From Leucoraja erinacea (taxonomy: Eukaryota): 64,000 nt of DNA. The notes below the pieces were generated by a model, which saw nothing but the letters and a program-made list of their open reading frames with translations, ran no database searches and was not told the origin of the DNA. Positions within the stretch are counted from its first letter, which is position 1, and every line of letters begins with the position of its first letter. The position numbers and the translations under genes are program-made. The stretch covers positions 6,014,001 through 6,078,000 of the forward strand of contig NC_073406.1 of the NCBI RefSeq assembly GCF_028641065.1, read 5' to 3'. Of this stretch, positions 1,306 through 64,000 are shown piece by piece.

Positions 1306-1358
1306 CTGGTGGGAAAAAAATATTATTAGTGGCTTTGAAGAGGTGTCAGGACAGGGAG

Positions 1359-1452
1359 GTTACACAGAAAAGCTGGAGAAACTCAGCGGGTGCAGCAGCA
1401 TCTATGGAGCGAAGGAAATAGGCAACGTTTCGGGCCGAAACCTCTTTAACAC
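1359..1452 (-). mobile_element. Penelope-terminus-derived mini-element with 15-bp TSD
   Basis: Flanked by TGTCAGGACAGGGAG at 1344-1358 and 1453-1467. Confidence 0.8.
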
Positions 1453-2159
1453 TGTCAGGACAGGGAGTCTCCATTGCATCCAACACAGCTCTATTATATC
1501 AGGCATCAAATATTGGGACAACAAAACAATACTCGCAGAACAAATAAAGGTAAGGCTCAGGGCCAAGCTCAGGGACCTTAAAATTTCAAACAATTTTGAT
1601 AACAAGGCTACTTGCACTTGTGGGGAAGAGAAAAAATGAAAAGTCAATGCAAGAGATAATAAATTGTGAGAAATTAACAAAGCTGTTTTAGATTGTTTAA
1701 AAAAAATTGACATCAAAGAGAGTGGCGAGGCTAACAGTATAAATACATAAATTAAAAAAAAAAAGCTTGATAAACACTAGGGTAAACACTAGGCATTTAT
1801 AGAAGCTGATATGTAGTAAACCTTTGTTATAATGGACCATTGAGGGGGGGGAGGGGGAAGAATGGTGTCCATAATTGCCGTTTGTCCACTGTAACCAAGT
1901 AAGTTATTATCATTGTATGTGTAGTAGAATCAAAAAATTACAGTTGCTGGTTAATGCACAAATGGACACAAACTGCTAGATGGAGTAATTCAGTAGCCTA
2001 GGCAGCATCTCTAGACAATGTAAATAGGTGATATTTTGGATCGAGACCCTTCTTCAGATTCTCGGTCTGGAATTGGACCTGAAATCCAGGTGAATTAACT
2101 GCCCCGGCCTGCAGGTGGCTGAGGGAGGGGTGGCTGCGAGCGGAGTCAATGGTCGCGGC

Positions 2160-2295
2160 CAGTGTGTTGGCAGTGGCGGCAGAAGGCACGGCTTAAAAGC
2201 GGCCAAGGTATGTGTGTTGGCCAGCAGTGGCGGGAGAAGGCACGGCTTAAAAGCGGCCAAGGTATGCGTGTTGGTTAGCAGTGGCGGGAGAAGGT
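2160..2295. repeat. 54-bp tandem repeat, about 2.5 copies, within a GC-rich insertion (~2060-2720) in a NOL9 intron
   Basis: GAAGGCACGGCTTAAAAGCGGCCAAGGTAT recurs at 2182 and 2236. Confidence 0.8.
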
Positions 2296-3127
2296 CCGGT
2301 CTGGAAGTGGCGTAGGCGGCTGGCTCTGCAAATGGTCGTCGCGGCCGTGCGAGACGGGGACAGCACGGGTGGCTGGGGCTGTGAGCGCTGAGGTTAGCCT
2401 GCACTGCAAGCGGCCAGGGAGGTAGTGCGGGTGGCCGATGCTGTGAGCGGCAGGGGAGGTGCACGATCAGCTGTTGATATGTCCATCCGCTAAAACCAAA
2501 ATTTGTTCTAAACAGGTTATTTAAACTAGACCTTACTGTAGTCAGAAAATGAAGGATGGATGGAAGCCTAAATACAACATAAATCCTGGTCCATATTAGT
2601 TGAAGCAAATGTCTAATTTCTATGCTGAATAATCTACGAGAGTTGTGACCATATATCTGTACTTGAAATGAGATCACCTAATCGCCACATCCCGAGTTAT
2701 GCATCCCCCTCGCCGAAATGCATCCTCCTCATCCATACATGTATTCACTCACAAAATATTCACATTTTCCATTGCACAAAGACAAGAAGTGGGTAGGGGA
2801 CTTGTATATGAAAATAACCACAAATATATCTCTGTGTAAAAATAGTTTATGTAAAAAGGAGGAAGTTGGAGGTTTCTTGGAATCAGTTCCTTTTATCCTT
2901 GTGGGTGGTATAGAGGAAGCTTGGCCAGTTTCTCTTGTGCAGTATACAGCGAGTACTCTGTGCAATTAGTATACACTGTTCACTGGTCATCTATCTGAAA
3001 TGTTGATTCTGTTTCTCCCTTCATAGAGATTGCTTGACCTGCTGAATATTGGGAGGGAACAGACACTTGTATCCCTGTTAGGTGTTTAGAGTAATAGGAG
3101 ATATTAACATAACATAGTTATACTTAC

Positions 3128-3425
3128 GAACATCTTCCATCTTCCACTCCAGGAAACTCAGAATGAATGCACATCCATTTGTGTCCCTGGAGTCCCACGT
3201 GCATTTGCATCTCCTCATCTGAAGATGAGGAGTTTGAGGACAATTTGAGGTTCGCGGGCTTTTGCTGAATTTGGTGTTTCCCCTTGGTCTGCCACCCTGC
3301 AGCTGTCTGCACAAAGTCCGCTGTCAGAAGCACAAAGTCTTGGCTCCCCCTCGTGGCGACCAGCTGTACCACATGGGTTGGTGCCAAAAAACGGATCAGA
3401 TCAATCAAAACAGACAAGCCAAATC
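3128..3425 (-). CDS. NOL9: NOL9 coding exon 8 (298 nt)
   Basis: tgatag|GFGLSVLIDLIRFLAPTHVVQL...HSEFPGVEDGRCS|gtaagt; phase 1 to 2. Confidence 0.93.
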
Positions 3426-4416
3426 CTATCAAAGAAGAAGGGAGACAGGTACTGGTCAAGATCAGGTGGATGTGACAGAGACCGATTGAGGCTAAATGCG
3501 TGTGTATAAAATGGCATGATTTTGATCCGGGACTTTTCCCAAAATGTATGATGACCCGTATAAATGAATTCAATATTGTTCCTCTAATAACACAATCGCC
3601 ATTCTGTAATCATTCAAATTTATCAAAGTGATTAATTTACTGTAAAAAAGTTATATTAAATTTAAAAGTTATATTAAATTTAAACTGCAAAATCAAAATA
3701 ATGAGCAAAAGGAATAGACAGTGGAGTTACCAAAATATACTCTTGTATTCATTTTTTCAAAACCATTCTCCAGCTTAGTTTTAAAATGACTGTTGAAGAT
3801 GACAATTGTGGCAGGAGATGACATAACTGCAAAATACATTTAGCTCCTGAAACGATCTGACATGAGACAATATCTTGCAGATAATGGTTTGCCATTTATT
3901 CTAACAATAATGGGAAGCATCATTTAGCCAATGTTGCCAACTACATGGGACAAACTAGAACTGCGCGTACTATATCATATTAAACTGTCTCATATTAAAT
4001 AGGTTAATTATGCAAATCATTATCTCAGGTGCTGTTAGTCTGGGTTGAGAATTTCTACATTCTCGTGCTATTTCTGGGAAACAAGGGCTAACAATATATC
4101 AAAGAATATTCACTTCATGTGTAAATGGAAGGCTGTGGTACCTATGGAATGTATACTCCAGTATGCGGTGGGAGTGGGATTTAATTAATGGAAATAAAGC
4201 AATCTTAGTATCCAGGTTTCTGAATGGCAGTGGTGTAGAAGGTAGTGCTATTGTTCCATGTGGACAGCAAACCTGGGCTTGATCCTGACCAGCATTCGGA
4301 GCTTGGCTTTCTCCCTGTGACTGTGCAGGTTTCCTCTGGGGACTCCAGTTTCTTCAACATCCCAAGAAGATGGTTGGTAGGTTATCCTTTGTTTCATTAA
4401 GTAAAATAATCTATGT

Positions 4417-4545
4417 TTAAGAAGGAACTGCAGATGCTGGAAAACCGAAGGTAGACAAAAATGCTGGAGAAACTCGGCGGGTGAGGCAGCATCTATGGAG
4501 CGAAGGAAATACGCAACGTTTCGGGTCGAAACCCATCTTCAGATA
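4417..4545 (-). mobile_element. Penelope-terminus-derived mini-element
   Basis: aaggaactgcagatgctgg...gctggagaaactc...cttcag family sequence; AATAATCTA on both flanks. Confidence 0.75.
4515..4542 (-). ncRNA. Minimal hammerhead core, GUU-triplet variant
   Basis: Reverse complement CTGAAGATGGGTTTCGACCCGAAACGTT, inside mini-element 4417-4545. Confidence 0.6.
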
Positions 4546-4744
4546 ATAATCTAAGTGCAGTTTTTGGCAAGTCAGTGAGAAACTGGGAAATAAGTGGAGG
4601 ATTATTCTGAGAGGAAGCAAAGATTTGAGAAGCCTAATGGCCGCTTTCTGCAGTGTGAGAACATTTTAAAACGTATGAACATGACTTAAAAGGGCCAAAT
4701 GACACTTAATCATCTATACTCGATTGTATTGTAAGGTTTCTGAC

Positions 4745-6477: not shown

Positions 6478-7315
6478 ATAACCTGCGCAGGCAGTGAAGA
6501 AAGCTAATGGCATGTTGGCCTTCATTGTGAGAGGATTTGAGTTTAGGAGCAAGGAGGTCCTATTGCAGCTGCACAGGGCCCTGGTGAGACTGTACCTCGA
6601 GTATTGTGTGCAATTTTGGTCTCCTAATATGAGGAAGGGCATTATTGCTATTGAGGGAGTGCAGCGCAGGTTCACCAGGTTAATTCCCGGAATGTTAGAA
6701 CTGACATGTGATGAAAGAATGGGTCGATTAGGCTTGTATTCACTGTAATTTGGAAGGCTGAGAGGGGATTTTATAGAAACATATAAAATTCTTAAAGGAA
6801 TGGACAGGCTAGATGCAGGAAAAATGTTGCCGATGTTGGGGGAGTCCAGAACCAGGGTCACAGTTTAAGAATAAGGCGTAGGCCATTTAGGACTGAGATG
6901 AGGAAAAACATTCATCCAGATTTGTGAATCTGTGGAATTCCCTGCCACAGAAGGCGGTGGAGGCTCAACTCTACAGAACATTTTTTTCATTATTTATTAT
7001 GTAAAGAGTGTTTAGATTTGTTTGGTTGTTTTGTTGTTTGTCTTTTGCACAAAAATCCGCGAGCATTGCCACTTTCATTTCACTGCACATCTCGTATGTG
7101 TATGTGACAAATAAACTTGACTTGACTTGACTTGACGGCCAATTCACTGGATGTTTTCAAGAGAGTTAGATTTAGCTCTTAGGGCTAAAGGAATCAAGGG
7201 ATACGAGGAAAAAGCAGGAACGGGATACTGATTTTAGATGATCAGCCATGATCATATTAAATGGCAATGCTGGCTTAAAGGGCTGAATGGTCTAATCCAG
7301 CACCTATTTTATGTT
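6478..7315 (+). mobile_element. CR1/HER1-type LINE 3' fragment
   Basis: KKANGMLAFIVRGFEFRSKEVLLQLHRALVRLYLEYCVQFWSP...; interrupted at ~6967-7136 by a Rex1-type 3' UTR with (CTTGA)n tail. Confidence 0.88.
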
Positions 7316-7513
7316 TAAGCAACTGTCATTAGTATAGAGAGGCATGATGTTGGCATGACGTGAGCGGTAATAGAGCCTGTATTCACACTGTAGAACTCTC
7401 TGGTGAATGCCTGTGTAAAGCAATGATATAACAAGGGCAGCAGAAACACTAAATCTTCATACTTGCCATGTTCCAAATCCTTCCTCCATCAACATCAAGT
7501 CCCCAATGCTTAC

Positions 7514-8646: not shown

Positions 8647-8933
8647 CTGCAATAAATACAGAGATTAGGAGCACAACACCAAAATACCCCCATTAGCAAT
8701 CCTAAACTAAAATGCGAGTGTTAGACATACTCAGCAAGTCCAGCAGCATTTTTCAGAGAGAAACAGAGTCCATGTTTTAGGTTGATGACCTTTTTATCAG
8801 AACCTGAATTCAGCTAGAAAAATTAGGGAAGCGATTTCAGCTTGGCAAACCCTCTCATTCCATCCCAACAAACACATCTAGGACAGATACCAAATGGGTC
8901 AGATAAAGAGTAAAGCACTGTCAATATATTTTA

Positions 8934-9030
8934 GGTAGACAAAAATGCTGGAGAAACTCAGCTGGGTGCGGCAGCATCTATGGAGCGAAGGAAATAGGCA
9001 ACGCTTCAGGTCGAAACCCTTCTTCAGACT
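8934..9030 (-). mobile_element. Penelope-terminus-derived mini-element
   Basis: Same family sequence; TATATTTTA on both flanks. Confidence 0.75.
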
Positions 9031-9523
9031 ATATTTTAAATGTCCTTAAACTTCACAAAAAGAATGCAAACCTTGTTTTGTTTTACTTTTTATACCGTTT
9101 GGTAGCCTTCCTGGGTATCTATTTACGGCCATTACTAGTTGTCACAATAAAAGGTGCAGAATTTAGAAAAGTGTAAATCCCAGTATTATTAAAAACACTC
9201 CCAATTTTATTCTACAACAATTTCTGCTTATATGCACCCTTGCATCTTTACAGGAACATTATCAAACACAAAAGCTGCCAAGAGTAATTAAGATAATAGG
9301 TCAATATTAAGAGGTGACTTTTAAAATATTTTTTTAAAGAAGGAAACGAAACAGAGGGAGGAAAAATCCAAACCAAGATGTTTGTTAGTTGCAGAGTTGG
9401 GCACTCACACTGTAATTACATTCAGCCCAAGTGGATAAGACAGATAGTTGGGAAAAAAATTACAGAAATATGGAGGAATGAGACCACAGCAGGATTTAGA
9501 AACCCGAATAAAGATTTTAAAGG

Positions 9524-9732
9524 AAGAGAGACACAAAATGCTGGAGTAACTCAGCGGGACAGGCAGCATCTCTGGTGAGATGGAATGGGTGGTGTTTCTG
9601 GTCGAGAGAAGGGTCTTGACCCGAAACGCCACCCATTGCTTCTCTCCCGAGATGCTGCCTGTCCCGCTGAGTTACTTCAGCATTTTGTGTCTATCTTTGG
9701 TCTAAACCAGCATCTGCAGTTCCTTCCTCCAT
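9524..9732. mobile_element. Inverted (hairpin) double mini-element with 10-bp TSD
   Basis: Two inverted arms; ATTTTAAAGG at 9514-9523 and 9733-9742. Confidence 0.8.
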
Positions 9733-10066
9733 ATTTTAAAGGCAAGGTGTTATTTAACCAGGAGATAGTATGCTTGAGTATGGGTAAACAGAAGTTGATC
9801 CAAGTTAGGACATGGGCAACAACGTTTTCAGTGACCTCAAGTTCAGTGAGTGCAGAATGAGAAAGGCCATCCAGGGGTGTGCTGGAAACTTACATTTCAG
9901 CTTTGCTAAAGCCATCAGACAAGGCCCTTACAACTTGCAATAGGAATAAATTCCTACATACCCCGTGTACCACGCACCATCCTCTTGCTACACAAATGGT
10001 ACAATAGACATTTGATGCATCTGGTCTAACAACTAGTATTCCTTTCCATGGATCCCAGATCCTCAC

Positions 10067-10479: not shown

Positions 10480-11580
10480 GAATGATGGATTTGTAGCCAA
10501 GTTTGCAGATGACATGATAATATGTGGAGGGAAAGATGGAGTTCTCCTTATTGCGTATGGCGTGCACAGCCTAAAGTTGTAGGACAACTTGTTCTATTTG
10601 ATCTTATTTGATTGTGCACGTCGGTTTGATTGCATTCGGCGAAACAGGGCGGACCTCGTGAAGGTTGCAATCTTCCACCCCAAAGATGGAGTTGAGGAAG
10701 CAGGGAGTCTGCAGAAGAAATTGGATAGGTTTTGGAGGGTGAACAAGGAAGTGGTGAATGGAATACAGCATAGCAAAGTGAACTATCGTGCACTTTGGTG
10801 GAAGGGCTAAAGGTGTAGACTATTATTTAAACGGGAAAATAATTCAGAAATCAGAGGGGCAAAGGGACTTGGAGGTGCTGTTGCAGGATTTGCAAAAGAT
10901 TAATTTACAGGTTGAGTCAGTAGTACAGAAGGCAAATGCAATGTTAGCATTCATTTTAAGATGACCAGAATATACATGCAAGGATGTAAAGCTGAGATTT
11001 TATAAGGTGCTGGTCAGACCATATTTGGAATATTGACTGCAGTTTTGGGTTCCATATCCGAGGAAGGAAGTGCTGGCATTGGAGAGGGTTCAGAGGTTTT
11101 GCACTCAGAGGTTTTGCACTCAGTGGGTGAGGCAGCAATCTATGGAGAGGAGGAATAGGCGACGTTTCGGGTCGAGACCCTTCTTCAGACTGATGTCTGG
11201 GGAGGGGGGAAGAAAGGAAGAAGCGGAGACAGTAGGCATGTGGGAGAGCTGGGAAGGGGATAGGAAGGAGAAAGCAAGGACTACCTGAAATTGGAGGTGA
11301 ATAAAAGGACGTTCCTTTAGAACGGAGATGAGGACGAATTTCTTTAGCTATATGGTGGTGAATCTGTGTAATTCATTGCCACAGAAAGCTGTGGAGGCCA
11401 AGTAATTGGGTATTTTTAAAACAGAGATTGATAGATTGCTGATTAGGAAGGGCATCAAAATTTACAGGGAGAAAGCGAGAGAATGGAATTGAGAGAGAAA
11501 AATAGACCAGTCATGATCAAGTGGCAGAGCACACTCTATGAGGCGAATGGTTTAATGCTGCTACTGTCTCTTATGATCTC
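10480..11580 (+). mobile_element. Degenerate CR1-type LINE RT 3' fragment with nested insertions
   Basis: VAKFADD motif; YKVLVRPYLEY..QFW.P; interrupted by a Penelope-terminus segment at ~11120-11300. Confidence 0.75.
11161..11188 (-). ncRNA. Minimal hammerhead ribozyme core (Penelope-type), intact
   Basis: Reverse complement CTGAAGA-A-GGGTC-TC-GACCC-GAAAC-GTC: CUGANGA box, 5-bp stem II, GAAA box, palindromic ACGU helix III, GUC cleavage triplet. Confidence 0.75.
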
Positions 11581-11751
11581 AGTGTTGCAGAGCACCAGTT
11601 CCAGAGGCTAAGAACAATGTTCGCAATGGGGTAGAGGCGAGTCAGACAGTACACTAGCTTTTAAAAGGACTGTTCAGAAGTCTGATAATTCAACACCGCA
11701 TGAAGGGCGAGGGGCTGAAGGAGCAAGGAGCAAAACAAAACTCTTTAATAC

Positions 11752-12330
11752 CTGTGATGGTGACATGAGGACTATACTTTGTTCATTCCCAGTGTTAATT
11801 GCAGTGAAACAAAATCTTGCATTGACTTCAGAGGATGCAGTGCCATTGTCAACAAGATCTTCAAATGGTTCACCATTGAGCCCACCATTAATTGTAAACA
11901 AGCCGGCATTCAAACACTGTTGCTCGATTCCTTCCTCTTTCTCCTCAGTTCCATTTGCCTGCTCTATTAAAGTCCTGCTCTTTTTTAATGAAATGTTGAC
12001 CTTTTCCTCCAAGTTTTGAGACGGGGGCTCAGTTTTATTTTCTTCCTTGTGTAGTTCACCAGTATTTGATTGCAGATTTTCATCATCCTCACACTTTTCT
12101 TTGGCACTTTCCCATTCAACGGCATTTATTGTGTTGTGTCTGAGGCGTGGTCTCTTCATTCTGCGGCGACAGGGGGCAAGTAAGCAGCAACGTCGCGTGA
12201 GCACGCTCAGCTGCTTGGCTCCTGAAACATCAGTCAGTACCAACATGGTCTTGCGCTTCCACCTGCGGCGCCGAGCTACTGTGGGAACAGACTGGCTCAA
12301 ACACATCCCCGCTGGATTAGTGACTCTCAT
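11752..12330 (-). CDS. NOL9: NOL9 first coding exon (193 aa, basic N-terminus followed by acidic linker)
   Basis: ATG at 12330, preceded by an acceptor (ctcaagcag, ~12357-12365). Basic clusters RRRRWKRK and RRRMKRPR. Ends ...SIVLMSPSQ|gtatta, phase 0, joining in frame to the next exon. Confidence 0.85.
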
Positions 12331-12950
12331 CTTTTGTTAGTTTCAGCACGATCCAACTGCTTGAGAGGAGAAATAACATATTTTAAAAATCAGTAATTAT
12401 TCAGCTTTCTGGTGCGTGTCTGAGTATTCAATGTGGGTGATTGACAGATCTGACAGAATGATTACATAGAAATGCAGAACCAAGAAAACGTAACGCCACA
12501 TCTCTTAAAATCCTTCTGTTTTAATCTGTTATTTTTAATTATTTGCAACAGTAATTAACCTGGTTTCAAATATTTGTTTTTGATTGCTGTCATTCAACTC
12601 TACTACCTTCTCTAAATCCATCTCTACATTTAATCAGTTTTCTCTTCCAAAACTCCATTCCCTTAGTATTCCAGCCAGCTCTGAAACCTGCTTAGTGCTC
12701 AAGGTAGTGACTTTATGCAACAGGCAATCTATAATGTGCCTACAATTAAAAGCACCGTACAATTGTTAGTAACTCTATACACCTTGATAATCCCCTAATG
12801 CACATTGCAATAAATTCCAATTATTCCTTGCTCCTATTCCTCACCTCAATCAAAAACATTTTCATATCTTGAAAACATTTACAGCAACAACCATGTTCAT
12901 TTCCCCAAACCTATTCTCTCATTGCATATAACCATTTCATACCCAGTTAA

Positions 12951-13048
12951 GGTAGATAAAAGTGCTGGAGAAACTCAGCGGATGGAGCAGCATCGATGGA
13001 GCGAAGGAAATAGGCAACATTTCGGGCCGAAACCCTTCTTCAGACTGA
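12951..13048 (-). mobile_element. Mini-element with hammerhead core and 14-bp TSD
   Basis: TCATACCCAGTTAA at 12937-12950 and 13049-13062; core at 13016-13043. Confidence 0.82.
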
Positions 13049-13599
13049 TCATACCCAGTTAATCCTCATAACCCTTTTCTTTATATTCTCTCCACTATGT
13101 CTCAATGTGCATTGTCTGCCAAAGCAAACTGCAAGCACACTTCACAACTCAGTACCCACAACCCACCAAAACCAACTATTTGGCCGGGTGCATTTCTATT
13201 GAGTTCTTTGAGCATGTGACAAGCATTGGATTTTCAGAAGGCTTTCAATGAAGTCCTACATAGGAAATTGGTTATCAGTACACTTAGTTGCAATATTGTG
13301 ACAGACCGAATAGAACCAAATGGATCTTTCTCGGTTTGGCATACTGTACAGTACTGCTGGGATTGATACTTATGCTCCAGCTTTTTACAATTTAAATCAA
13401 TGATTTGACTGAGGGAACCAATGTCATCTTTCCTTTGCGCTGATAATACTAAATTATAAAATGTGAGCTGGGAGGAAGATGTAAAGAAGCTTCAATGAAC
13501 TATAGACAAGCCTAGTAAGTTAACAAGAATTTGGCAGATGCAAAATAACGTGCCAGAATGTGAGGTTGTCTCTCGTTTACACTGCCCCTGCCCCATCGC

Positions 13600-15123
13600 C
13601 ACATGAAACCACACTCTGCCTTGCCCTCCTACACTACACCCGTCTTCCCTCCTCTCCAACACAACACCCTCTCCCATACCTCTCGCCCAGCAGAGCTGGT
13701 CCTTACCCTCAACTTCTCCTTCAACTCCTCCCACTTTCTCCAAATCCAAGGAGTAGCTATGGGCACTCGCATGGGCCCCAGCTATGCCTACCTCCTTGTA
13801 CGGTACGTCAAACAATCCCTGTTCCAGGCGTACACTAGCACTATCCCTGAACTCTATCTCCGCTACATTGATGACTGCATGCACCCATGCAGAACTCACT
13901 GACTTCATCAACTTCACAACAAATTTCCATCCTGCACTCAAATTCACTTGGACCATCTCTGACATCTCCCTACCGTTTCTAAATCTCACCGTTTCCATTA
14001 CAGGAAATAGACTATTGACCAACATCTACTACAAACCTACTGACTCCCATAGATATCTTGACTACACTTCTTCCTACCATGCTTCCTGTAAAGACTCTGT
14101 CCCCTACTCCCAATTCTTCCATCAACACTGCATTTGCGCCCAGGATGAGGTGTTCCATACCAGGGCATCGGAGATTACCTCATTCTGTAGGAAACAGGGA
14201 TTCCCTTCTTCCGTTATAGATGAGGCTCTCACTAGGGTCTCCTCGATATCCCACAGTTCCGCTCTTACTCCCTCTCACCACCATTCGTAACAAGGACAGA
14301 GTCCCCCTTGTCTTCACCTTCCACCCCATCAGCCGTGGCGTACAGCATATAACCCCTCCAACATTTTTGCCACCTCCAACGGGATTCCACGACTAGCCAC
14401 ATCTTCCCATCTCCACCCCTTTCTGTTTTCCGGAGAAATCGTTCCCTCTGAAACTACTTGGTCAACTCGTCCCTTCCCACCCAAACCACCTCCTCCCCAG
14501 GTACTCTCCCTTGCAACCGCAGGAGATGCAACACCTGTCCCTTTACCTCCCCCCTTGACTCCATCCAAGGACCCAAACCGTTTCTCCAGCGGAGGCAGAG
14601 GTTCACTTGTACCTCCTCTAAACCTCATCTACTGTATCCGCTCTTCCAAGTCAACTTCACTACATCGGCGAGACCAAGCACAGTCTCGGCGATCGTTTCA
14701 CTGAACACCTCCGCTCAGTCCGTCTTAACCTACCTGATCTCCCGGTGGCTCAGCAATTCAACTCCCCCTCCCATTCCCAATCTGACCTGGTCCTCCCCCA
14801 TTGTCCGAGTGAGGGCCAGCGCAAATTGGAGGAACAGCACCTCGTATTTCGCTTGGGTAGCCTACACCCCAGCAGTATGAACATTGACTTCTCTCTAACT
14901 TCAGATAGCCCTTGCTTTCTCTCTCCATCCCCTACCCAGTTCTCCCACTAGTATTACTGTCCCCGACTACATTCTAGCACTGTCCCACCCCTCCCCCCTC
15001 CCCTGACATCAGTCTGAAGCAAAGATACTGGTCTGAAGAAGGGTCTAGACCAGAAACGTCGCCCATTCCTTCGCCCCATAGATGCTGCCTCACCCGCTGA
15101 GTTTCTCCAGCATTTTGTGTCTG
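13600..15123 (+). mobile_element. Penelope-like retroelement remnant (RT, GIY-YIG endonuclease, terminal repeat with hammerhead core), frameshifted
   Basis: FLQIQGVAMGTRMGPSYA..YLRYIDD (RT); YYKPTDSHRYLDYTS (thumb); CNRRRCNTC; YIGETK..LGDRFTEHLRSV (GIY-YIG); CTGAAGA..GAAACGTC at 15033-15060. Confidence 0.9.
15033..15060 (+). ncRNA. Minimal hammerhead ribozyme core at the Penelope 3' terminal repeat
   Basis: CTGAAGAAGGGTCTAGACCAGAAACGTC, with one mismatch at the base of stem II. Confidence 0.62.
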
Positions 15124-15224
15124 CCCTCTCTCACATTGCAGCAGCCATCTCCTGTACTGCAAATCTCTCGGCTCCCAGAGACTGCAATCCTTTCTAATAT
15201 CCCACCCTAACTCTATTTGCCGCA

Positions 15225-15590
15225 CACTACACCAGGTGCAGCCTCACGCTACTTTCTGCTTTCCCTTCACGCCACTAACTGTCGCCGGCGACGAACCATT
15301 CGCCCCCTTTCTCCGCGCCTCACGACTGTATAAATTTTCCAAGCCCCAGGCACTTTTATTTTAGCTTCCCGACTTTCGACAATAGACGGAATTTGAACAA
15401 TACCACGATTCCAGCCCGCTCTGGCCCCGGCCCCGGTGTCCGGCTTCCAGCACCTTCCACCCCGTGCTGGCCTAACACGGCTGGTGGCGGCCAATCCACA
15501 TCGCTCCCGGAATTGCTTCCGTGCGGCTCCCCCTGCTGGCGGGAGGTCGAGGCGGGACAGCGGCATCCTTCAGCAACTCACGTCCTCACA
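15225..15590 (-). promoter_or_regulatory. NOL9: CpG-rich promoter / probable non-coding first exon of NOL9
   Basis: Locally GC- and CpG-rich non-repeat segment about 3 kb upstream of the NOL9 ATG exon. Paired ETS-like sites (CCGGAA..CTTCCG, ~15507-15521). Minus-strand GTGAGG donor candidates near 15247 and 15323. Confidence 0.55.
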
Positions 15591-16335
15591 TAGAAAATAG
15601 GTGCAGGAGTAGAGGCCATTCGGCCCTTCGAGCCTGCACCGCCATTCAATATGATCATGGCTGATCATCCAACTCAGTATCCTGTACCTGCCTTCTCTCC
15701 ATACCCCCTGATCCCTTTAGCCACAACTAACTAACAGAGCAAACAAAATCATGAGAGACCTCTTCCACCCCTGCAACGGACTGTTCCAGCCGCTACGGTC
15801 AGGCAAACGCCTCCGTTGCCATGCTGTGAGAACGGAGAGGTTGAGAAGGAGTTTCATCCCAGAGGCAATTCGGACTGTAAACGCCTTTCTCACCAAGGAC
15901 TAACTCTACAGAACGTTTTTCCTTCTATTATTTATTATGTAAAATAATATGTGTGTTATGATTGTGTTTAAATTTGTTTGGTATTTGTACCGCGAGCATT
16001 GCCACTTTCATTTCACTGCACATCTCTATGTAGCCACAACTAAACTCCCTCTTACTTATAGCCCTCTGAACTATGGCCTCAACTACCTTCTGTGGCAGAG
16101 AATTCCACAGATTCACCACTCTCTGTGTGAAAAATGTTTTTCTCATCTCGGTCCTAAAAGATTTCCCCCTTTATCCTTAAACTGTGACCCCTTGTTCTGG
16201 ACTTCCCCAACATCGGGAACAATCTTCCTGCATCTAGCCTGTCCAACCCCCTAAGAATTTTGTACGTTTCTATAAGATCCCCCCTCAATCTTCTAAATTC
16301 AAGCGAGTACAAGTCGAGTCTATCCAGTCTATCCA
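15590..16335 (-). mobile_element. CR1/HER1-type LINE 3' end with nested Rex1/Babar fragment
   Basis: LYSLEFRRLRGDLIETYKIL..TRGHSLRIKG. Nested plus-strand RANKIMRDLFHPCNGLFQPLRSGKR..RLRRSFIPEAIR (~15735-16030) flanked by TAGCCACAACTAA. Confidence 0.85.
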
Positions 16336-17114
16336 CACGATTGTTCTATCGAGATACACCATGCATCTTCTTAGAGCGAGATTCAAGAGAGTTTATTGTT
16401 ATGTGTCCCTGATAGGACAATGAAATTCTTGCTTTGCTTCAGCACAACAGAACATAGTAGGCATGACTACAGACATAACCAAGTTGCAAAGAAAGGTTCT
16501 GTGCGTCCTCAAAGTCAGGCAACTAAAACTCCTGTGGCCCAGCGCCTGATTATTCCGAAATCCTGATGTTCGGCTCCTTCTGGGTCACAGCCTGAGCTGG
16601 GCTCCAGAATATGCCGGGGTCAGAAACATGTAGGCCTATGGTTGGAACCAGGGTCTTGGCTTCTTATTTAATTCCCACTGCCTTTAAATTCACCAAGGTC
16701 ACTGGAAACCGTATTATTCAAGCCAAATGTGTAGGAAGGGGGTGCAGTTGCTGGTTTAACCAAAGACAGACACAAAATGCTGGAGTAACTCAGCGGGTCA
16801 GGCAGCATCTCTGGGGAAAAGGAATCCGTGATGTTTTGGGTTGAGACCCTTCTTCACACTGAGAGTCATGGGAGAGGGAAACTAGCCACAACCTTGAAAA
16901 CATCCTGGTCCTCAACCCAGTGGGAAACAACTGATCCTTTTGGGCGATATTAATACCTGCATACATTCCCTACTACTTCCTTGCTCTCTGGCAACTCGAA
17001 TGAGGTCTGCCTCTGGACCCCATCAGACAATAGTTGTATGTCCTCATGATAATACTCCTAGTCTGATTGAAGGACAAGATTGTCTGCATTACCTGTGCCA
17101 TGACTGGTGCCAAT

Positions 17115-17680: not shown

Positions 17681-18403
17681 TACACCAACCACTGCTGGAC
17701 TGATCCGCTCTATTATCTTCATCAATCTGGTGCCAAAATAACAGCATTGTTACTCGAGGATTGATGTCAACGTTCTCAATGACCATGCACACCAATATAA
17801 ATTAATGTACTTAAATTAAAGTGAATGAATTAATATTGCTCTTTAACTAGGCTTCAGAACACTGTTTTTAGAAGGGTCCCGATCCAAAATGTCACCTATC
17901 CATCTTCTCCAGGGTTGCTGACTGACCTGCAGAGTTACTCCAGCACTTTGTGCCTTTTTTTAAAATCGTATTTCTTTTGTCCATTTACGGTTTTCTAATC
18001 AACGTTTGCCTTTTTTGGCTGAATTTGGTTTTTAGCAGTGGCCGCTTTTAAAAGTCGATAGAATCCGAACAGTACAAATAATAAGTTTCTTTGTGAGGCC
18101 TCCCCACCCAACAATGGGGGTTGGAGTGCACCTGAGTTTAATGTTCTTTCTCCTGCTGCCTGTTACTCAATACAAATTCTCTCCATAGGCATATAGCATT
18201 GATATCCTCCAAATGTGGAGATGTGTGGATATTTTGTCATTATTTTTGTATGTCTTCTGATTTCCCTCAGAAGGATAAAAGGTTAGTTAAACTGTTATCT
18301 AATCTATATCTATAAAGAAACAGATTTGTTCATCTGTGAAATAAATAGTAACTGTAAACCAGCACTAATTGAAAAAGTATTAAAAAGGGTATCCCTATTT
18401 CAC

Positions 18404-19247: not shown

Positions 19248-19585
19248 TAGAAACATAGAAACATAGAAAATAGGTGCAGGAGGAGGTCATTCGGCCCTTC
19301 GAGCCTGCACCGCCATTCGATATGATCATGGCTGATCATCCAACTCAGTATCCCATCCCTGCCTTCTCTCCATACCCCCTGATCCCTTTAGCCACAAGGG
19401 CCACATCTAACTCCCTCTTAAATATAGCCAATGAACTGGCCTCAACTACCTTCAGTGGCAGAGAATTCCACAGATTCACCACTCTCTGTGTAAAAAATGA
19501 TTTTCTCATCTCGGTCCTAAAAGACTTCCCTCTTATCCTTAAAGTTGTGACACCTAGTTCTGGACTTCCCCAACATCGGGAATGT
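19248..19585 (-). mobile_element. CR1/HER1-type LINE 3' end
   Basis: (ATAGAAAC)n tail followed by the same 3' sequence as the copies at 15590 and 59068. Confidence 0.85.
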
Positions 19586-23969: not shown

Positions 23970-24067
23970 GTAAACATTTTACTTTATTCAAATATGGTCA
24001 TGCAAAACAGTCACCACTTCTGATGAGGGAATCAAGAATACAGGGACATAATCTTATATTTAGAGTT

Positions 24068-41040: not shown

Positions 41041-41083
<43 letters not shown>

Positions 41084-43821: not shown

Positions 43822-43920
43822 TATCTGAAGAAGGGTCTCGACCTGAAACGCCACCTATTCCTTTTCTCCAGAGATGCCGTCTGACCCGTTGAGTTACTCG
43901 AGCATTTTGTGTCTATCTTT
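43822..43920 (+). mobile_element. Mini-element; hammerhead core with mutated triplet (GCC)
   Basis: CTGAAGAAGGGTCTCGACCTGAAACGCC followed by family tail ...gagttactcgagcattttgtgtctatc. Confidence 0.7.
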
Positions 43921-45084: not shown

Positions 45085-45367
45085 ATTTGGCGCAGAAACA
45101 GCCCTTCGGCCCGCCTTCAGACCAGCGACCCCTGCAAATTAACATTATCCTACACACACTAGGAATAATTTACCCTTATACCAAGCCAATTAACCTACAT
45201 ACCTGGATGCCTTTGGAGTGTGGGAGGAAATTGAAGATCTCGGAGAAAACCCACGCGGTCACGGGAAGAACGTACAAACTCCGTACAGACAGCACCCATA
45301 GTCGGGATTGAACCCAGCTCTCTGGTGCTGTAAGGCAGCAATTCTACTGCTGTGCTACTGTGCCGCC
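45085..45367 (-). mobile_element. tRNA-derived V-SINE (HE1-like)
   Basis: Reverse complement of the same family; further copies at ~37205-37480 (-) and ~4225-4385 (+, degenerate). Confidence 0.75.
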
Positions 45368-45956
45368 CATAAATAATATGTTCCAATATTTTCTGCCTGG
45401 GATTCAGAGCATTGTAAAAATGGTCATGCAACAAACCCGGGTTCAGATTGCAGCCCTGAACTGCTATTCTTCCTCATTGGTCACCCTCTGACTATCAATG
45501 ATCGGACTTTACTGGTTTTACCTTGCACTATTGCCTTACAATGTATCTATACAATGTCAATGGCTCGATTGTAATCATGTATTGTCTTTCCGCTGACTGG
45601 ATAGCACACAACATAAGCTTTTCACTGTACCTCAGTATACATGACAATAAACAAAACTGAAGATATTATTTCTGAGTGTCAAGCATGATATTGGACCCCA
45701 AAATACAACTACCTAATGGGATCCATTATCTTGGCAGATATCTTTGAACACTCGTCAAAATCTCACTCCATTTTGTCTTTAATACTAACATTTAAGTACC
45801 CCAATTATTTTGAGGTAGATGAATTTCCATTTTCTGTCAGTGTGAAATTGAAGTATGCACCTGTAATTGAATTATGCAAATGAAGCTAGATGCAGAATGT
45901 TCTGTTTATGCTTTCAATTGTCTGTTAAATAGTGCAATAGTGCTTCTAAAGCAGAA

Positions 45957-45995
<39 letters not shown>

Positions 45996-46018
45996 GATGG
46001 ATGTTCAAGATCAAAAGG

Positions 46019-46112
46019 TCTAAAGAGGGGTCTTGACCCAAAACGTCACCCATTCCTTCTCTCCAGAGATGCTGCCTGTCCCACTGAGTTACTCCAGCTT
46101 TTTGTGTCTATC
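46019..46112 (+). mobile_element. Mini-element with 13-bp TSD
   Basis: CAAGATCAAAAGG at 46006-46018 and 46113-46125. Confidence 0.78.
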
Positions 46113-47408
46113 CAAGATCAAAAGGACCATGCGCTCACCAATTTCAGAACTAGGAGTGACTACATCGAGTCAAAATTTCATGCACTTGGAATGACCACTC
46201 ACATCAGCAGATAAATTAAGTGTATTTGTACATAGGGAATTACAACTTGTACTGAAAGTGTTCAGGGAAGCTGGTATCATGGAGTAGTGGCGCCTCACAG
46301 ACATCCGAGAGAGGTTCATAGATTAACTGGGGAGTTAATGTTATGTTTCAGAGTTTGTTCGTGTTGTGTAGAATGGCTGCAGTACTCCCGCAAGAACTTG
46401 GAAGATTCTATTTCTCTGCTATACTGTTTCTACCCCACCCGAATCTCCAGTCTTCAGTATTTTGGACACAGTCCTGTATGTCGTACTTTCAGCCCAGTTC
46501 TGAAATTATCAGCACATTCCAAGCAGCTTATTTCATTCCAGCGCCGTGCAGTTTGTTGATTCTGCTGGTCGGCAATATTCACAGTCCCATGTGAGATACA
46601 GAAACAAGCGGCAGCCTTGTGAACCATAGATCTCTTTATTCAAAAAGCACAGTTGCAACTAACCTACAAATTCACACTGCTAACCTGCTAAATAGTTAAC
46701 AAGAGAGTCAGTAAATTCAATAATTTTGATTGACATTTTAGCCTGCTGCTCTTATATTTTTGTTCAGTAATGCTCTCTCTGGGTAACTTAAATGGGGAAT
46801 TTCCCTGTTGACAGAAAAATAGAAAATGGCACCACAGAAGAAGCATATAACAATACAGTACTGCATTATTGGAAAGAAATGAACTTGAAGTGAATTACTT
46901 TTGATACAGGGGCTGCCTTCCGCAATCACGTGAACTTAACCCGATGAGAAAGTGTCTAAAATTGGAGGAGCATCTCAGTCTGGACATTATGAGATTAATT
47001 TCATATTTCTTTGACACAATGAAAGAATGGATTGAAAGTGAGTAGGTTAAGAGAAAGGGGTGAATGAGGGTTGATGTAGTCAGTAGGAAAGAGAAGATTT
47101 TGTGGTTCGAATGATTAGTAGATCCCCTGGAGAAAGTGCTTTTGTCCGATTCTGTTTTTTTTCAGGATTCTGCCAATTTTATACCAAAGATTTCACTGAA
47201 ATTTAGATTGTTCCTCAGAAATGTAAAACAACAAAATGGCATTTCACTACCTTGGTACATGTGACTATACTAAACTAAATGCAATATTGAATAAAATATA
47301 GTGACTGATCCTGGACTGAAAAACTGGCAAATAACGAATGCAAGCTTTTAGCCGGCACGTTCAACCTAATCGAATAAATATACATCTTACACACCAGTAA
47401 ACGACTTA

Positions 47409-53100: not shown

Positions 53101-53323
53101 TAATTTATCCATACTAGACTAAGTGGGGCCCGTTGGGTCCCATGTTCGCATGGTCCCCCAATGCAATATTCCACCTCCCCACCATTTCCAATATTGGTGG
53201 CCAGTGGGGGGGGGGGGGGGGGGGGGGGGGGGGGGCTTCTGGAGTGCTAGTATGGGTGTTGTGGGCTGAAGGGACTGATTTCCAGGGGGCTAGTATGGAC
53301 ATAGAGGGTCAAATGGATTCTTG

Positions 53324-57790: not shown

Positions 57791-59067
57791 CCTACTTACT
57801 TTCTAAGATGCCTTCATTTCTACCACTCTGGCATGTAATTACACTGTAACACTAAATGCTGGACGTCTGCCCCTTTTTTTGTGCAGGAAGCAGATGTCTG
57901 TACAAAATGCTCTCAACGGGCTGCAGACATGCCTCCTGACTGTTCCATTTAGCCAGCAGAGGCTGCAGTCTGGAAAAGCGTCTATGGGGCACATTTGTGG
58001 GCATTGCCAAATATTTTTTAGTGGGGGGGAGAAATGTTGATATTTCTAGGGGGGGGGGAGGGGTGGGAGGGGGCAGGACTCTCAAATTCTGCAGTGTCAC
58101 AGGAATTTTCATAAGACCACACAGCTAAAAGTGCACAGGTCTGCTGTGGCCCAGATCACAATAACCTCTGGAGTATTGCCAAACCTGACCACGGCCATCC
58201 ACTGAGAAACTACTGTCTGCTTCCTCATGGATACATTAAAGTTAAGTGAGACATTGTCGTCTTCATTTCCCTGAGGGAAGGAAGAAGCATTAGAGAGTTG
58301 TATCGCCAACAAATCTTGGTGCTTGGGAGCCACAGTATCCACCAAGTGGACCGTCTCCTCTGGACTAATTCATCTCGCAGTCTGACGGCTCCCTATGTCT
58401 TAAGTGACAATTGACAATCCTGTATACCTTGGTCGGGAAGAAAACGAGACGTTAATGAGGTGGACCCATAATTAGCGCATTTAAAAGGTTTGTGAGTGAA
58501 TGTGGAGGAGTGAGGAATTATCTGGCTGTCAGTGAGTGGGAGATTAGCAGAGGTAAGCAGGTGTCTGTTTGATCAGTCTTGCATCATAAGGTATGCATAG
58601 TGATCTCTCATTCTTGCCTATCTTGAGGTTATGATACTTTTACTTATATAGTTGCATACTATAGTGTACGGGCTGGAAGTCAGCTCTGCTGCCACCTCTT
58701 GCCAATCAAACCTGTTGTTGCTATAAACATCATCGTGGTCACCTTTCACAAAAGTCATCTTTCCTATTAGCAATTTCAAAGTGTTTAATGGTGAATCTCT
58801 GAGTTTGCATCCCCTCTGTTCTGTTATTTTAGGATTCATGACAAGTTCCACCAATAACGTGCAGCACCAGACAATCATCAAGTACTCCATTGTGGGTTTT
58901 CCTGTAGCCTGCAGAAGGTTTTTTTTGCGGTTCTCATTTCCGTGAAACCTTTTAATGACTAGAGTCCTGACACCACGGCTATGTAGCTAGATGTCTCAAA
59001 AAATGGACTTGAAATTTCTGTAGAGATCAAAAACAAAGAATTTGAAAAATAAGGATTCTAATGCTTT

Positions 59068-59452
59068 TAGAAACATAGAAACATAGAAATTAGGTGCAGG
59101 AGTAGGCCATTCGGCCCTTCGAGCCTGCACCGCCATTTAATATGATCATGGCTGATCATCCAACTCAGTATCCCGTACCTGCCTTCTCTCCATACCCTCT
59201 GATCCCCTTGGCCACAAGGGCCACATCTAACTCCCTCTTAAATATAGCCAATGAACTGGCCTCAACTACCCTCTGTGGCAGAGAGTTCCAGAGATTCACC
59301 ACTCTCTCTGTGTGAAAAAAGTTCTCCTCATCTCGGTTTTAAAGGATTTCCCCCTTATCCTTAAGCTGTGACCCCTTGTCCTGGACTTCCCCAACATCGG
59401 GAACAATCTTCCTGCATCTAGCCTGTCCAACCCCTTAAGAATTTTGTAAGTT
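59068..59452 (-). mobile_element. CR1/HER1-type LINE 3' end (young copy)
   Basis: TYKILKGLDRLDAGRLFPMLGKSRTRGHSLRIRG; (ATAGAAAC)n tail. Confidence 0.88.
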
Positions 59453-59601
59453 TTGCACTTAATTTTCAATTTAAGGATGTGCACAGTTAGCAACTTCTAA
59501 AAATAACACCACAACAAAATGCAATGTTACTTTAATATTCCAATTTGAGAGCAAATAACATTGACCAAAACATAATATTTCTGATTCTTTTTTTTTAACA
59601 G

Positions 59602-61277: not shown

Positions 61278-61574
61278 TTCCTGCAAATGCCATAAACCCC
61301 GATAGTGTTGTGTTGGCTTATCAAAACGTGTCTGCTCCGGCTGGGTCGGAAGTTGTACTGCAGTGCTACAGTCAACGGATGGTATGGACACAGGACAGAT
61401 TGATAGATCGTCAACGTGTGGCCCATTGGGATTCATTCTCTGACCATAAGTTCAATCGTATTCTCGATATGTTCTCAGCGGATGAACAACGACTCTATAA
61501 CCCCTATGATCAGGGTCGGATAATGATGTCACCCTCTGCTTTCTCCAGTGGAAACTTCTCTTTAGTAATAAAAG
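61278..61574 (+). CDS. MXRA8: MXRA8 exon 3 (Ig domain)
   Basis: VPANAINPDSVVLAYQNVSAPAGSEVVLQCYSQRMVWTQDRLIDRQRVAHWD...GNFSLVIK|gtaaaa; RMVWTQDRLxDRQRVxHWD is diagnostic of MXRA8. Confidence 0.96.
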
Positions 61575-61699
61575 GTAAAAAAATATCAAATTGTTTTGCT
61601 CTTTCTATTTCCGACTTTAAATACACTGTAATGGACTAAATTAGCAAAGCTTATTAAATAATATTAGATATAGTAATACTGTATTGAAAATAGTTTTTG

Positions 61700-62115
61700 T
61701 TTTCTCTGGAATGTCGGAAGTTGAGGGAATACTTGATAGATGTATATTAAATTATGAGATAGGATAGACATAGCATAGATAGGGTAGACAGTCAGAACCC
61801 TTTTCCCATGGTGGAGATGTCCAACACTAGAGGGCGTAGCTATAAGGTGAGAGGCAGACAGTTTAATGGAGATGTACGGGGCAGGTTTTCTTTACGCAGA
61901 GGGTGGTGGGGACCTGGAATCCATTGCCAGGAGTGGTAGTGGAGGCAGATACGATAGTGGCATTTAAGAGGCTTTTAGATAGGCACATGGAAGTGAAGAG
62001 AATGGAGGGATATGGATCATGTGAAGGTAGATGAGATCAGTTCAACTAGGCAACATGTTCGACACACACATCATGGGCTGAAGGGCCCGTTTCTGAGCTG
62101 TACTATTCTATGGTC
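61700..62115 (+). mobile_element. CR1-type LINE 3' fragment (second subfamily)
   Basis: TRGRSYKVRG..F.GDVRG.F.TQRVVG.WN-like translation; related pieces at ~23460-23690, 32660-33090 and 35230-35810. Confidence 0.75.
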
Positions 62116-62777
62116 TGAGACAAGTGGTGTACTGTGGTCACAACCATAAAGGGTATCATTTGGGACTGGTTGGTGTTGGTTCATTGTTGTGGCCGAGGGA
62201 AAAAATGTAATTGCAGGGAACAAAATAAGAAGTTACGGGAAAGATGAGCATAGTTTTTCAACAGGTCCATAATAGGAACACATAATCTGGAAGTTCAGTC
62301 ATAAAAGTTGAGACAATTATACTTTCTCTTTTCTGTTTTGTGAAGTAAATCTGACCTGCAACCTTCGAAAGAAATTTCATGGCTCTGCAGTATGATTTGT
62401 GGATGGATATTTAGTTCAAACGCCTAGATCAGTCTCTTCCAATACCTGGAAATGAATGGGAATGGGGATTTAAAATATGTACTTTTTCCTGAAGGTTCCA
62501 TTTAAGTATTTTGCAAGTAATGACTATAAAAGCTTGGATAATTATTGCCAGTTATACTGTGTAATGGTGGGTACATAAAGTATGGAGATTTAATGTAAAA
62601 CCATTTTGGAGGGAATCCTCTCACTGTTGGAATCCCTTTTATTGTCAATTCTTTGATGTTCGTGCTGAAAATGAGAACGGAAGCGACTAATGGTGGTTTA
62701 ATTTTATTAGTAACACCACATCTACCAAGTAACATCAAATAAAAATGATAACCCCATCTATTTTGCCTCATTTACAG

Positions 62778-62879
62778 ATGTTAGAGCAACTGACCGAGGA
62801 ATTTATTCCTGTCATCTCCACCACCATTATTGTCACCTTTATGAAACAGTAAATATTCAACTCAATATCACCAAAGCAG
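62778..62879 (+). CDS. MXRA8: MXRA8 exon 4 (102 nt); gene continues beyond the window
   Basis: ttacag|DVRATDRGIYSCHLHHHYCHLYETVNIQLNITKA|gtaact; YxCxLHHHYC motif of MXRA8. Confidence 0.95.
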
Positions 62880-62890
62880 GTAACTGAATA

Positions 62891-63357
62891 TTTGTTTAAG
62901 AAGGAACAGCAGATGCTGGAAAATCGAAGGTACACAAAAAAAGCTGGAGAAACTCAGCGGGTGCAGCAGCATCAATGGAGCGAAGGAAATAGGCAATGTT
63001 TTGGGCCGAAACCCGGAAGATTCAAACAAGGGGACATGACATGAGAATTAAGGGACAGAAGTTTAGGGGTAACATGAGGGGGGACTTCTTTACTCAGAGA
63101 GTGGTAGCTGTGTGGAATGACCTTCCAGTGAAGGTGGTGGAGGCAGGTTCGTTTTTATCATTTAAAAATAAATTGGATAGTTATATGGATGGGAAGGGAA
63201 TGGAGGGTTATGGTCTGAGCGCAGGTATATGGGACTAGGGGAGATTATGTGTTCGGCACGGACTAGAAGGGTCGAGATGGCCTGTTTCCGTGCTGTAATT
63301 GTTATATGGTTATATGCTGCTGCACCCGCTGAGATTCTCCAGATTTTTTGTGTACCT
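62891..63357. mobile_element. Composite insertion: mini-element arm, CR1-type LINE 3' end, inverted mini-element arm, with 14-bp TSD
   Basis: CAGGTAACTGAATA at 62877-62890 and 63358-63371; internal TRGHDMRIKGQKFRGNMRGDFFTQRVVAVWN. Confidence 0.8.
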
Positions 63358-64000
63358 CAGGTAACTGAATAATTAGATTGGCATGAGATGGTGAAATGGA
63401 ACATGGTGTTATTTCAGTCTTCCTCATGGGCCTGTTTTTGTTTCAGCAAAGTAGATGAAATGTTACTGGATTGGGCTATTTATAATTCTAAAGGAAAAGG
63501 ACTGATTGGATAGACTCTGACTGGTTCTAATGATAGAGAGATTTAGAATAAGGGACATGCAGAAACAAGGAACTGCAAATGCGGACAAACAAAAAAGGAC
63601 GCAGTGCTGGCGTAACTCAGTGGGTCAGGCAGCATCTTTGGAGAACATGGATAGGTGACGCTTCAGAGTGGGACCTATCTTCGTAAACAATTAAAATCTT
63701 GAAATATGCTTAATTACATGAAATAGAAAGTTCTATTTACCTTTTAGCAGGCTTTCAACTTCTCCTTCAAATGCGTTTTAATTTGTATATTTCATTCATT
63801 AGTTTCCATATCTGTGTCACGTTCAGTGGGCAGTCTTCCTAGCCTGAACACTGTAAAATCTTCCTTTGACTATCCTGGGCAGGTGAAATGTTGCATATAG
63901 CTCATTCTCATGTTTTGCCCAGATACAGGCTTGCCTGCTAGATTATATGCCAACAGATCTGCCCATTGTATATATATATTTACATCTCCTTAGATTGTTG

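Follow-up and report, generated by a model that had tools for sequence, protein, structure and literature searches.

Short hammerhead-bearing units in a Leucoraja erinacea window are probably solo or head-to-head pseudo-LTR tips of Neptune-type Penelope-like elements

We analyzed a 64,000-nucleotide stretch of the Leucoraja erinacea genome (assembly GCF_028641065.1, contig NC_073406.1, positions 6,014,001 to 6,078,000 of the forward strand; hereafter the window, 41% GC) in which a short unit bearing a hammerhead ribozyme motif recurs beside remnants of Penelope-like elements (PLEs). With an iterated nhmmer profile (E ≤ 0.01) the unit is matched 36 times in the window and never in its reversed sequence. 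A covariance model of 24 copies also returned 36 matches, 35 of them in common with nhmmer (24618 on the minus strand was missed and a weak match at 20815 on the plus strand was added). The matches merge into about 31 loci totaling 3,416 bp, or 5.3% of the window, with a unit length of 95–130 bases and a density of one per ~2 kb. An earlier reading of the same DNA from its letters alone (the sequence-only reading) had described a unit of ~100–130 bp in more than 15 copies, in agreement with these counts. A scan of bacterial and archaeal genomes for a 25-nt motif of the unit found none. We number unit coordinates with hammerhead position C3 as +1, and we recognize 26 insertion events, from which four weak matches (869, 2991, 5968, 8791) are excluded (Table 1).

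Searches with homologous proteins (tblastn) located three PLE remnants in the window, at 13684–14912 (PLE1), 35949–37004 (PLE2) and 29535–30299 (PLE3). PLE1 matches a whale-shark protein of the reverse transcriptase (RT)/linker/GIY-YIG type (E 2e-91), and the closest named relatives of the retroelement open reading frame (ORF) come from rays, skates and sharks and carry RVT_1 and GIY-YIG domains. Pfam searches of 10 window ORFs gave no RT or GIY-YIG match because the remnants are frameshifted, and their identity is taken from the homologues. A C-x4-C-xx-C linker is present ahead of the endonuclease in both PLE1 and PLE2. As CX2-5CxxC is described as a Neptune/Nematis motif (PMC8557442), the linker fits a Neptune-type parent, yet it is common to Nematis. 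The unit forms the 3′ terminus of PLE1 and PLE2, and is therefore the tip of a PLE pseudo-LTR (pLTR, from long terminal repeat); in PLE3 a unit is inserted into the RT sequence. The pLTR lies downstream of an ORF with RT and GIY-YIG, as expected of an endonuclease-bearing (EN+) PLE. The Penelope remnant, the match of the unit to its 3′ terminal repeat at 15010–15123 and the PLE origin of the unit, all proposed in the sequence-only reading, are thereby confirmed, and two further remnants are added.

Several of the named relatives of the window ORF are host-gene models fused to PLE sequence. The PLE1 terminal repeat is itself interrupted: a core start at 15014 breaks off after +6 (6 nt) and is followed by a 12-nt insert and a second core start at 15033 (+), restarting at −2, as if RT had switched templates at the very boundary that terminates solo copies. 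The PLE 3′ region between the ORF end and the hammerhead (11190–11284 on the minus strand, 14905–15012 on the plus strand) resembles an intron of ~95–110 nt, with a donor-like GT in the last codons of the ORF, a pyrimidine-rich body and an AG at −2; the copy with C3 at 11188 starts 12 nt upstream of the donor-like GT. Within the unit, +35 to +53 (for example 46055–46075 on the plus strand) presents a pyrimidine run, an AG and then an ATG, and resembles a splice acceptor.

The copies fall into at least three subfamilies (A, B and C) of different age, with mean divergences of 5%, 7% and 16% from their own consensus. Subfamilies B and C, as well as a two-copy group sister to A, each hold copies that continue upstream into PLE sequence. 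The young subfamily A is represented by 10 arms in the window, none of which extends upstream of −5. Literature searches found no paper on this unit family; they did not cover Repbase/Dfam, subscription journals or bioRxiv supplements, so that the family may be catalogued already.

Table 1. Units, insertions and PLE remnants in the window (TSD, target-site duplication; a point marks structures with arms on both strands)
Positions	Strand	Feature	Details
1344–1467	−	Insertion with 15-bp TSD (1344–1358/1453–1467)	Untailed arm from +10 plus inverted ~12-nt tail tip 1441–1452
1925–2058	−	Older solo tailed unit	
4405–4553	−	Solo tailed unit, 9-bp TSD	5′ end −1/−2; core intact (GUU site)
8925–9038	−	Solo untailed unit, 9-bp TSD	5′ end −3
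9514–9742	.	Head-to-head pair, 10-bp TSD	Untailed arm (−), tailed arm (+)
11118–11296	−	Copy reaching ~108 nt upstream into PLE 3′ region	Best-preserved hammerhead; 3′ part lost past +71
11161–11188	−	Minimal type I hammerhead core	C3 at 11188, predicted cut after 11161; stem II 4–5 bp, ACGU helix III, helix I 2 bp
12937–13062	−	Solo untailed unit, 14-bp TSD	5′ end −5
13684–14912	+	PLE1, frameshifted, 5′-truncated Neptune-type ORF (tblastn, homologues)	RT C-terminal half, thumb, C-x4-C-xx-C linker near 14510–14540, GIY-YIG-type endonuclease
14893–15128	+	PLE1 pyrimidine-rich 3′ region and terminal repeat	Short (untailed) 3′ end
16730–16882	−	Tailed unit	Reaches ~25 nt upstream into PLE 3′-like sequence
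17870–17960	+	Older solo untailed unit	5′ end ~+5
20482–20560	−	Older solo untailed unit	5′ end ~+8
24051–24308	.	Head-to-head pair, 17-bp TSD	Tailed arm (−), untailed arm (+)
24577–24734	.	Head-to-head pair, 11–13-bp TSD	Untailed arm (−), tailed arm (+)
28922–29007	+	Older solo untailed unit	
29535–30299	+	PLE3, decayed RT remnant	Hosts the inserted 29917–30008 unit
29917–30008	+	Solo untailed unit within PLE3 RT	5′ end −1 to −3
31415–31542	−	Old divergent tailed unit	
35819–35913	−	Untailed arm head-to-head at 5′ end of PLE2 (inverted pLTR)	Core 35881–35908
35949–37676	+	PLE2, older decayed remnant	Interrupted by other repeats; partial unit at end (core start 37626)
38490–38704	.	Head-to-head pair, ~15-bp direct repeat both sides	Untailed arm (−), tailed arm (+)
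38909–39092	.	Tailed arm (−) joined at TCAG-N-CTGA palindrome to partial fold-back copies	+1 to +36, then −4 to +19
40934–41012	−	Solo untailed unit	5′ end ~+17
42385–42485	−	Old divergent tailed unit	
43824–43919	+	Solo untailed unit, no significant TSD	5′ end −1
46006–46125	+	Solo untailed unit, 13-bp TSD	5′ end −1/−2
62893–63014	−	Solo tailed unit	5′ end ~+9
63311–63357	+	Short untailed fragment	5′ end ~+48
63560–63684	−	Older solo tailed unit	5′ end ~+3

Exact direct repeats of at least 9 bp (9–17 bp) flank 8 of the 26 insertion events, compared with ~0.3% of 310 mismatched flank pairs. These eight TSDs are 69% AT, against 59% for the window. The flanking repeats reported earlier at 1344/1453 (15 bp), 12937/13049 (14 bp) and 46006/46113 (13 bp) are real, and so is the broader claim that copies without RT sequence were inserted with TSDs of their own. 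A ninth flanking repeat is seen across a run of 44 Gs at 38.5 kb. The window contains four G runs of 30–44 nt (38506–38549, 41044–41082, 45957–45994 and 53206–53235), three of which lie within ~35 nt of a unit (rough chance 0.002, for a pattern noticed before testing). The G44 run at 38506 sits between the left direct repeat and the untailed end, and GGGG follows the other repeat. The run could stem from reiterative addition of G during priming, from expansion at a later time or from an assembly artefact.

The 3′ ends of the arms occupy two fixed sites, at ~+92–95 and ~+126–129. Classed by hand, the 18 solo copies comprise 11 untailed (short) and 7 tailed (long) copies. The ~33-nt gap between the two classes matches the PLE tail, which is described as optional and 30–40 bp long (PMC8557442, PMC3846280). 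Both ends lie shortly past a repeated CAGCA, each copy of which can pair with the same upstream UGCUG arm. In three copies the two alternative UGCUG/CAGCA folds are within 2–5 kcal/mol of each other, and the first CAGCA hairpin is 85–91% paired, without covariation.

The 5′ ends of 33 arms, assigned by hand, are more widely spread and have one sharp concentration: 13 lie at −5 to +1, 10 at +3 to +12, 6 further downstream and 4 upstream (−25, about −110 and two long remnants). Expressed as a truncation rate, this corresponds to 0.3% per nt between +13 and +61, 4% per nt between +2 and +12, 20% per nt between −5 and +1, and at most 1% per nt beyond. All four TSD-anchored solo copies start at −5 to −1. 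After possible fold-back arms were dropped, simulations of constant-rate truncation (six rates, 20,000 trials per rate) never gathered 10–11 ends within a 6-nt interval at such a distance from the origin. The sequence-only reading had asked whether copy lengths form a continuum with no discrete short class, and we find a discrete class. The upstream flanks of the clustered copies are unrelated beyond TCAG, and the 5′ edge is therefore not hidden subfamily sequence; the copy at 29919 is marginal (26 against a null maximum of 22), its flank being RT sequence. None of the 33 arms starts at the predicted ribozyme cut site (+29), the nearest being 24622 on the plus strand, ~3 nt upstream of it. With a discrete 5′ class and no arm at the cut site, the ribozyme does not set the 5′ end of the unit.

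The edge sequence itself, TCAGT, resembles the initiator-like TCACT of Adineta pLTRs (PMC3846280). It also supplies the AG that closes a pyrimidine-rich stretch of ~95 nt, which opens at the end of the ORF with a donor-like GT. The PLE intron of D. virilis is reported to end at helix I (PMC4209133). A downstream promoter element-like motif as in D. virilis fits only partially by eye, and a spliced-exon origin finds no upstream sequence common to the clustered copies beyond TCAG. From sequence, the 5′ edge could reflect either transcription initiation or splicing.

Four head-to-head pairs (9.6, 24.2, 24.6 and 38.6 kb) each contain one tailed and one untailed arm inside one direct repeat. With the insertion at 1344–1467 and its inverted 12-nt tail tip, the complete inverted insertions are tailed plus untailed in five out of five cases (chance 0.02–0.06, on five events only and for a pattern noticed before testing); the inverted structures at 39 kb and at PLE2 are incomplete and were left out of this count. 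As the untailed arms stop where the solo short copies stop, they are primed products and not random fold-backs. A tail on one of two inverted pLTRs, TSDs of 8–10 bp and 5′ palindromes are described for Adineta PLEs (PMC3846280). We infer that the inverted pairs arise when both DNA strands are primed at two RT start sites, because the protein of the Anolis element PAc cuts and extends both strands. Literature searches, which did not extend to subscription journals or bioRxiv supplements, found no paper linking PLE inverted pairs to twin priming.

At its 5′ edge the unit carries the hammerhead core boxes, with a single additional base following A9. Stem II is 4–5 bp long and closed by G10.1–C11.1, a palindromic ACGU stands in for helix III, and cleavage is predicted after +28. 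Four copies (4542−, 11188−, 29919+ and 35908−), which are related and not independent, match a strict minimal-hammerhead descriptor, against 0.005 expected per window; both core boxes are kept in 8 of the 36 matches. This supports the minimal type I hammerhead with palindromic ACGU recognized in the sequence-only reading, whose motif at 11161–11188 (−) is exact and whose six variants (4515−, 13016−, 15033+, 29919+, 39039+ and 43825+) are all in place. A second motif listed there as intact, at 35881–35908 (−), keeps both core boxes, but its loop is changed (CCCG) and it has no helix I pair. Helix I, for which a minimal type I hammerhead should have several base pairs, is only 0–2 bp in the four strict matches and 3 bp by eye at 15033, where the closing pair of stem II is broken.

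Across 24 copies, non-CpG columns of the core show higher conservation than those of the downstream flank (0.96 vs 0.82, permutation p = 1.4e-4, the columns not being independent and the 5′ boundaries being masked by hand). The hammerhead thus withstands the objection, raised with the original proposal, that its core might be no more conserved than its flanks. The contrast is weak when subfamily consensuses are compared (p = 0.025 if G12 is left out as CpG decay, p = 0.09 if it is counted). Core conservation points to selection in the source elements and not in the copies, within which G12 undergoes CpG decay (0.67). In stem II, 93% of cells are paired and the changes are one-sided wobbles; 38–269 of 500 shuffles scored as high, which gives no significant covariation, and RNAalifold retained only three stem II pairs. 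By free energy neither the monomer nor the dimer adopts the active fold, the predicted dimer pairing through stem II. Rfam gave no hammerhead match at E ≤ 1 on the window and none at E ≤ 10 on 11060–11260. Rfam matches to the inverted pairs were rejected as chance hairpin matches.

We favor the explanation, with a probability of about 0.58, that the units are solo or head-to-head pLTR tips of several Neptune-type PLE subfamilies, copied mainly from autonomous PLE RNA and inserted by the RT/GIY-YIG protein of the PLE itself. In vitro, the Anolis PLE protein cuts and extends both strands, hammerhead cleavage is unnecessary, and on PAc RT starts at two internal sites that bound the tail (PMC11167929). 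By analogy, the two 3′ sites would be two internal RT start sites, separated by the ~33-nt tail. RT would then run off the template at a boundary immediately 5′ of the hammerhead, with 0–15 nt lost at joining; this boundary would be either the start site of an internal promoter, such as is reported for D. virilis Penelope (PMC2377424), or a splice junction. Staggered target cuts give the 9–17 bp TSDs, and priming of each DNA strand, one per start site, followed by joining of the two cDNAs, would give the head-to-head insertions. The hammerhead, conserved in the source elements, would not define the unit, and uncut RNA would serve as template. Since PLE-linked copies occur in B, in C and in the sister group of A, autonomous PLE RNA could have yielded the short copies as a by-product. 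As an element class the unit is best filed as nothing new: solo and inverted pLTR tips of a PLE.

Several observations weigh against this explanation. The other 18 of the 26 events have flanking repeats of 4–6 bp, which is chance level, and only 4 of the 33 arms carry upstream PLE sequence. The pile-up of 5′ ends is not significant when the position of the 6-nt interval is unconstrained and the mean extension is 30 nt or less (p 0.05–0.8), and the arms at 39037 and 39039 share one junction. The manual assignment of 5′ ends and the small number of inverted events count on the same side. The window holds no full-length PLE, and the link from tail to ORF start is thus unseen here. The 5′ boundary could instead reflect RT stalling at a small hairpin at −13 to +3, and a subfamily A without a copy upstream of −5 also fits a separate non-autonomous lineage.

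The latter idea extends to a possible, though doubtful, scheme in which a non-autonomous mini-element that is not processed by the ribozyme founded at least some subfamilies. Solo units of ~95–130 bp would keep an internal promoter and both RT start sites, and read-through transcripts would be copied in trans from +93/+126 to the start site, regenerating the same unit, with the 5′ end set by the internal promoter or a splice junction and the 3′ end by internal RT initiation. Short arms outnumber upstream-extended arms 29 to 4, the young subfamily A has no extended copy, pLTRs are reported to suffice in cis for mobilization in trans (PMC3846280) and non-autonomous PLE derivatives are described in Chlamydomonas (PMC8557442). 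Set against this are the PLE-linked copies in B, C and the group sister to A; moreover, to see no extension among the 10 arms of A is unremarkable, given that ~1 arm in 8 extends. There is also no RNA polymerase III (Pol III) head (ARAGORN 0 genes, no Rfam tRNA match, no A- or B-box on the sense strand), and a tRNA-derived short interspersed element (SINE) was rejected on the same results; a self-regenerating mini-element would do without such a head, and equally without poly(A), a tandem array or cleavage by the ribozyme. Under this scheme the head-to-head insertions would record, in vivo, a PLE dimer priming both strands at two start sites, possibly chosen via the alternative UGCUG/CAGCA hairpins. 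Recopying in trans does not exclude the favored origin from autonomous PLE RNA: if the promoter is internal, a solo unit holds all that is needed for recopying, and both routes may operate. Antisense A- and B-box-like words lie 53 nt apart with two mismatches in three of six copies tested (38942–39042, 46015–46115 and 43820–43920; 0–5% of 60 shuffles), and are set aside, since the polarity of the insertions indicates that the template is the sense strand.

The pile-up could also come from severe 5′ truncation of PLE cDNA of the ordinary kind, with RT stalling or switching templates at RNA structure around the 5′ edge of the hammerhead, but we consider this unlikely. Heavy 5′ truncation is known in PLEs (PMC8557442, PMC8969392), and the structures invoked are a small hairpin, predicted with 5 bp at −13 to +3 in the 11188 copy, and the TCAG-N-CTGA palindrome, at whose center the 39037/39039 junction sits. 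The hairpin, however, is only 3 bp in PLE1. Ends near +20 would be expected of a stall at stem II, yet one arm in 33 lies at +17 and one at +21, whereas the shoulder is at +3 to +12. Least probable is a retrozyme route: the hammerhead would cut tandem or circular RNA into monomers of unit length, and these would be reverse-transcribed and inserted. In its favor, the subfamilies have a conserved core in common, retrozymes derive from PLE pLTRs, and arrays may exist elsewhere in the genome; one chondrichthyan genome is reported to have them, with a mean of 363 bp and with dispersed monomers (bioRxiv 10.64898/2026.07.22.740005). Yet the window has no head-to-tail junction, the nearest same-strand neighbors being 171–499 bp apart, and TRF shows no unit array. 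No arm begins at +29, no class of 3′ ends falls at +28, and the cut would separate the core from the rest of the unit. With a helix I of 0–2 bp, a predicted dimer that pairs outside the active fold and no significant stem II covariation, the terms "ribozyme-processed" and "retrozyme-like" used in the sequence-only reading are not supported for this unit.

The closest published counterparts are the minimal hammerheads of Neptune-clade pLTRs (Cervera & de la Peña 2014, PMC4209133), which share the extra nucleotide between A9 and G10.1, the G10.1–C11.1 pair, the palindromic 15.2–16.2 and the location in a terminal repeat. They too are mostly dispersed singles, "probably related to truncated PLEs", and sometimes opposite-strand pairs. 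Stem II is 4–5 bp here and 7–8 bp there, and helix I is at most 2 bp here, as in D. virilis. The main text of that paper names fishes, coelacanth, Xenopus and reptiles but not cartilaginous fish, and describes no fixed 5′ boundary. Two 3′ classes ~30–35 nt apart are likewise seen in Anolis Poseidon PAc (Frangieh et al. 2024, PMC11167929) and in Adineta vaga pLTRs (Arkhipova et al. 2013, PMC3846280), which also have a tail on one inverted pLTR, similar TSD lengths, a palindrome at the pLTR 5′ end and AT-rich targets. Those elements belong to the Penelope/Poseidon clade, whereas the window unit is Neptune-type, and, unlike what is described for them, most window insertions are the pLTR tip alone with 5′ ends clustered at the hammerhead edge.

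Animal non-LTR retrozymes (PMC7229834; bioRxiv 10.64898/2026.07.22.740005) are similarly short and non-coding, with a type I hammerhead and kinship to PLE pLTRs. As described, they are tandem units with at least two hammerheads, form cleavage-defined monomer or circular RNAs and mostly have canonical hammerheads, none of which is seen for the window unit. The schistosome Sm/Sj-alpha SINE-like elements (PMC6765202, where hammerhead dimer cleavage is cited from Lunse et al.) are also short interspersed hammerhead-bearing repeats. In these the promoter head precedes the ribozyme, whereas the window unit has its ribozyme at the 5′ edge, no tRNA-like head and PLE terminal sequence throughout.

How PLEs transpose is poorly understood, and a full-length PLE protein characterized in vitro belongs to Poseidon (PMC11167929). 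If the density seen here holds genome-wide, minimal, TSD-bounded Neptune-type insertions would be available in very large numbers, and would allow the two RT start sites, both-strand priming and the relevance of hammerhead cleavage to be tested by computation alone. With their fixed ends and their pairing of tailed with untailed arms, the units are well suited to tests of PLE mechanism. They also caution against counting the dispersed minimal hammerheads of vertebrate genomes as retrozymes or as active ribozymes.

The neighborhood includes an exon of an MXRA8-like gene (61292–61579, plus strand; PDB matches E 1e-43), with three units 1.3–2.1 kb downstream, and a probable exon with an Ephrin_rec_like domain (26892–27080, plus strand). 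A 220-codon open frame at 11674–12336 on the minus strand is E/K-rich, has no Pfam match and is possibly a host exon. Two other repeat families are present, one with copies at 7132–7317, 15588–15726, 19248–19582, 27167–27535, 30238–30348, 36843–36953 and 59067–59453, and the other at 37302–37494, 44752–44907 and 45184–45369. We take them to resemble the 3′ end of a CR1-type long interspersed element and a V-SINE-type element, and some of their copies are inserted into PLE2 and PLE3.

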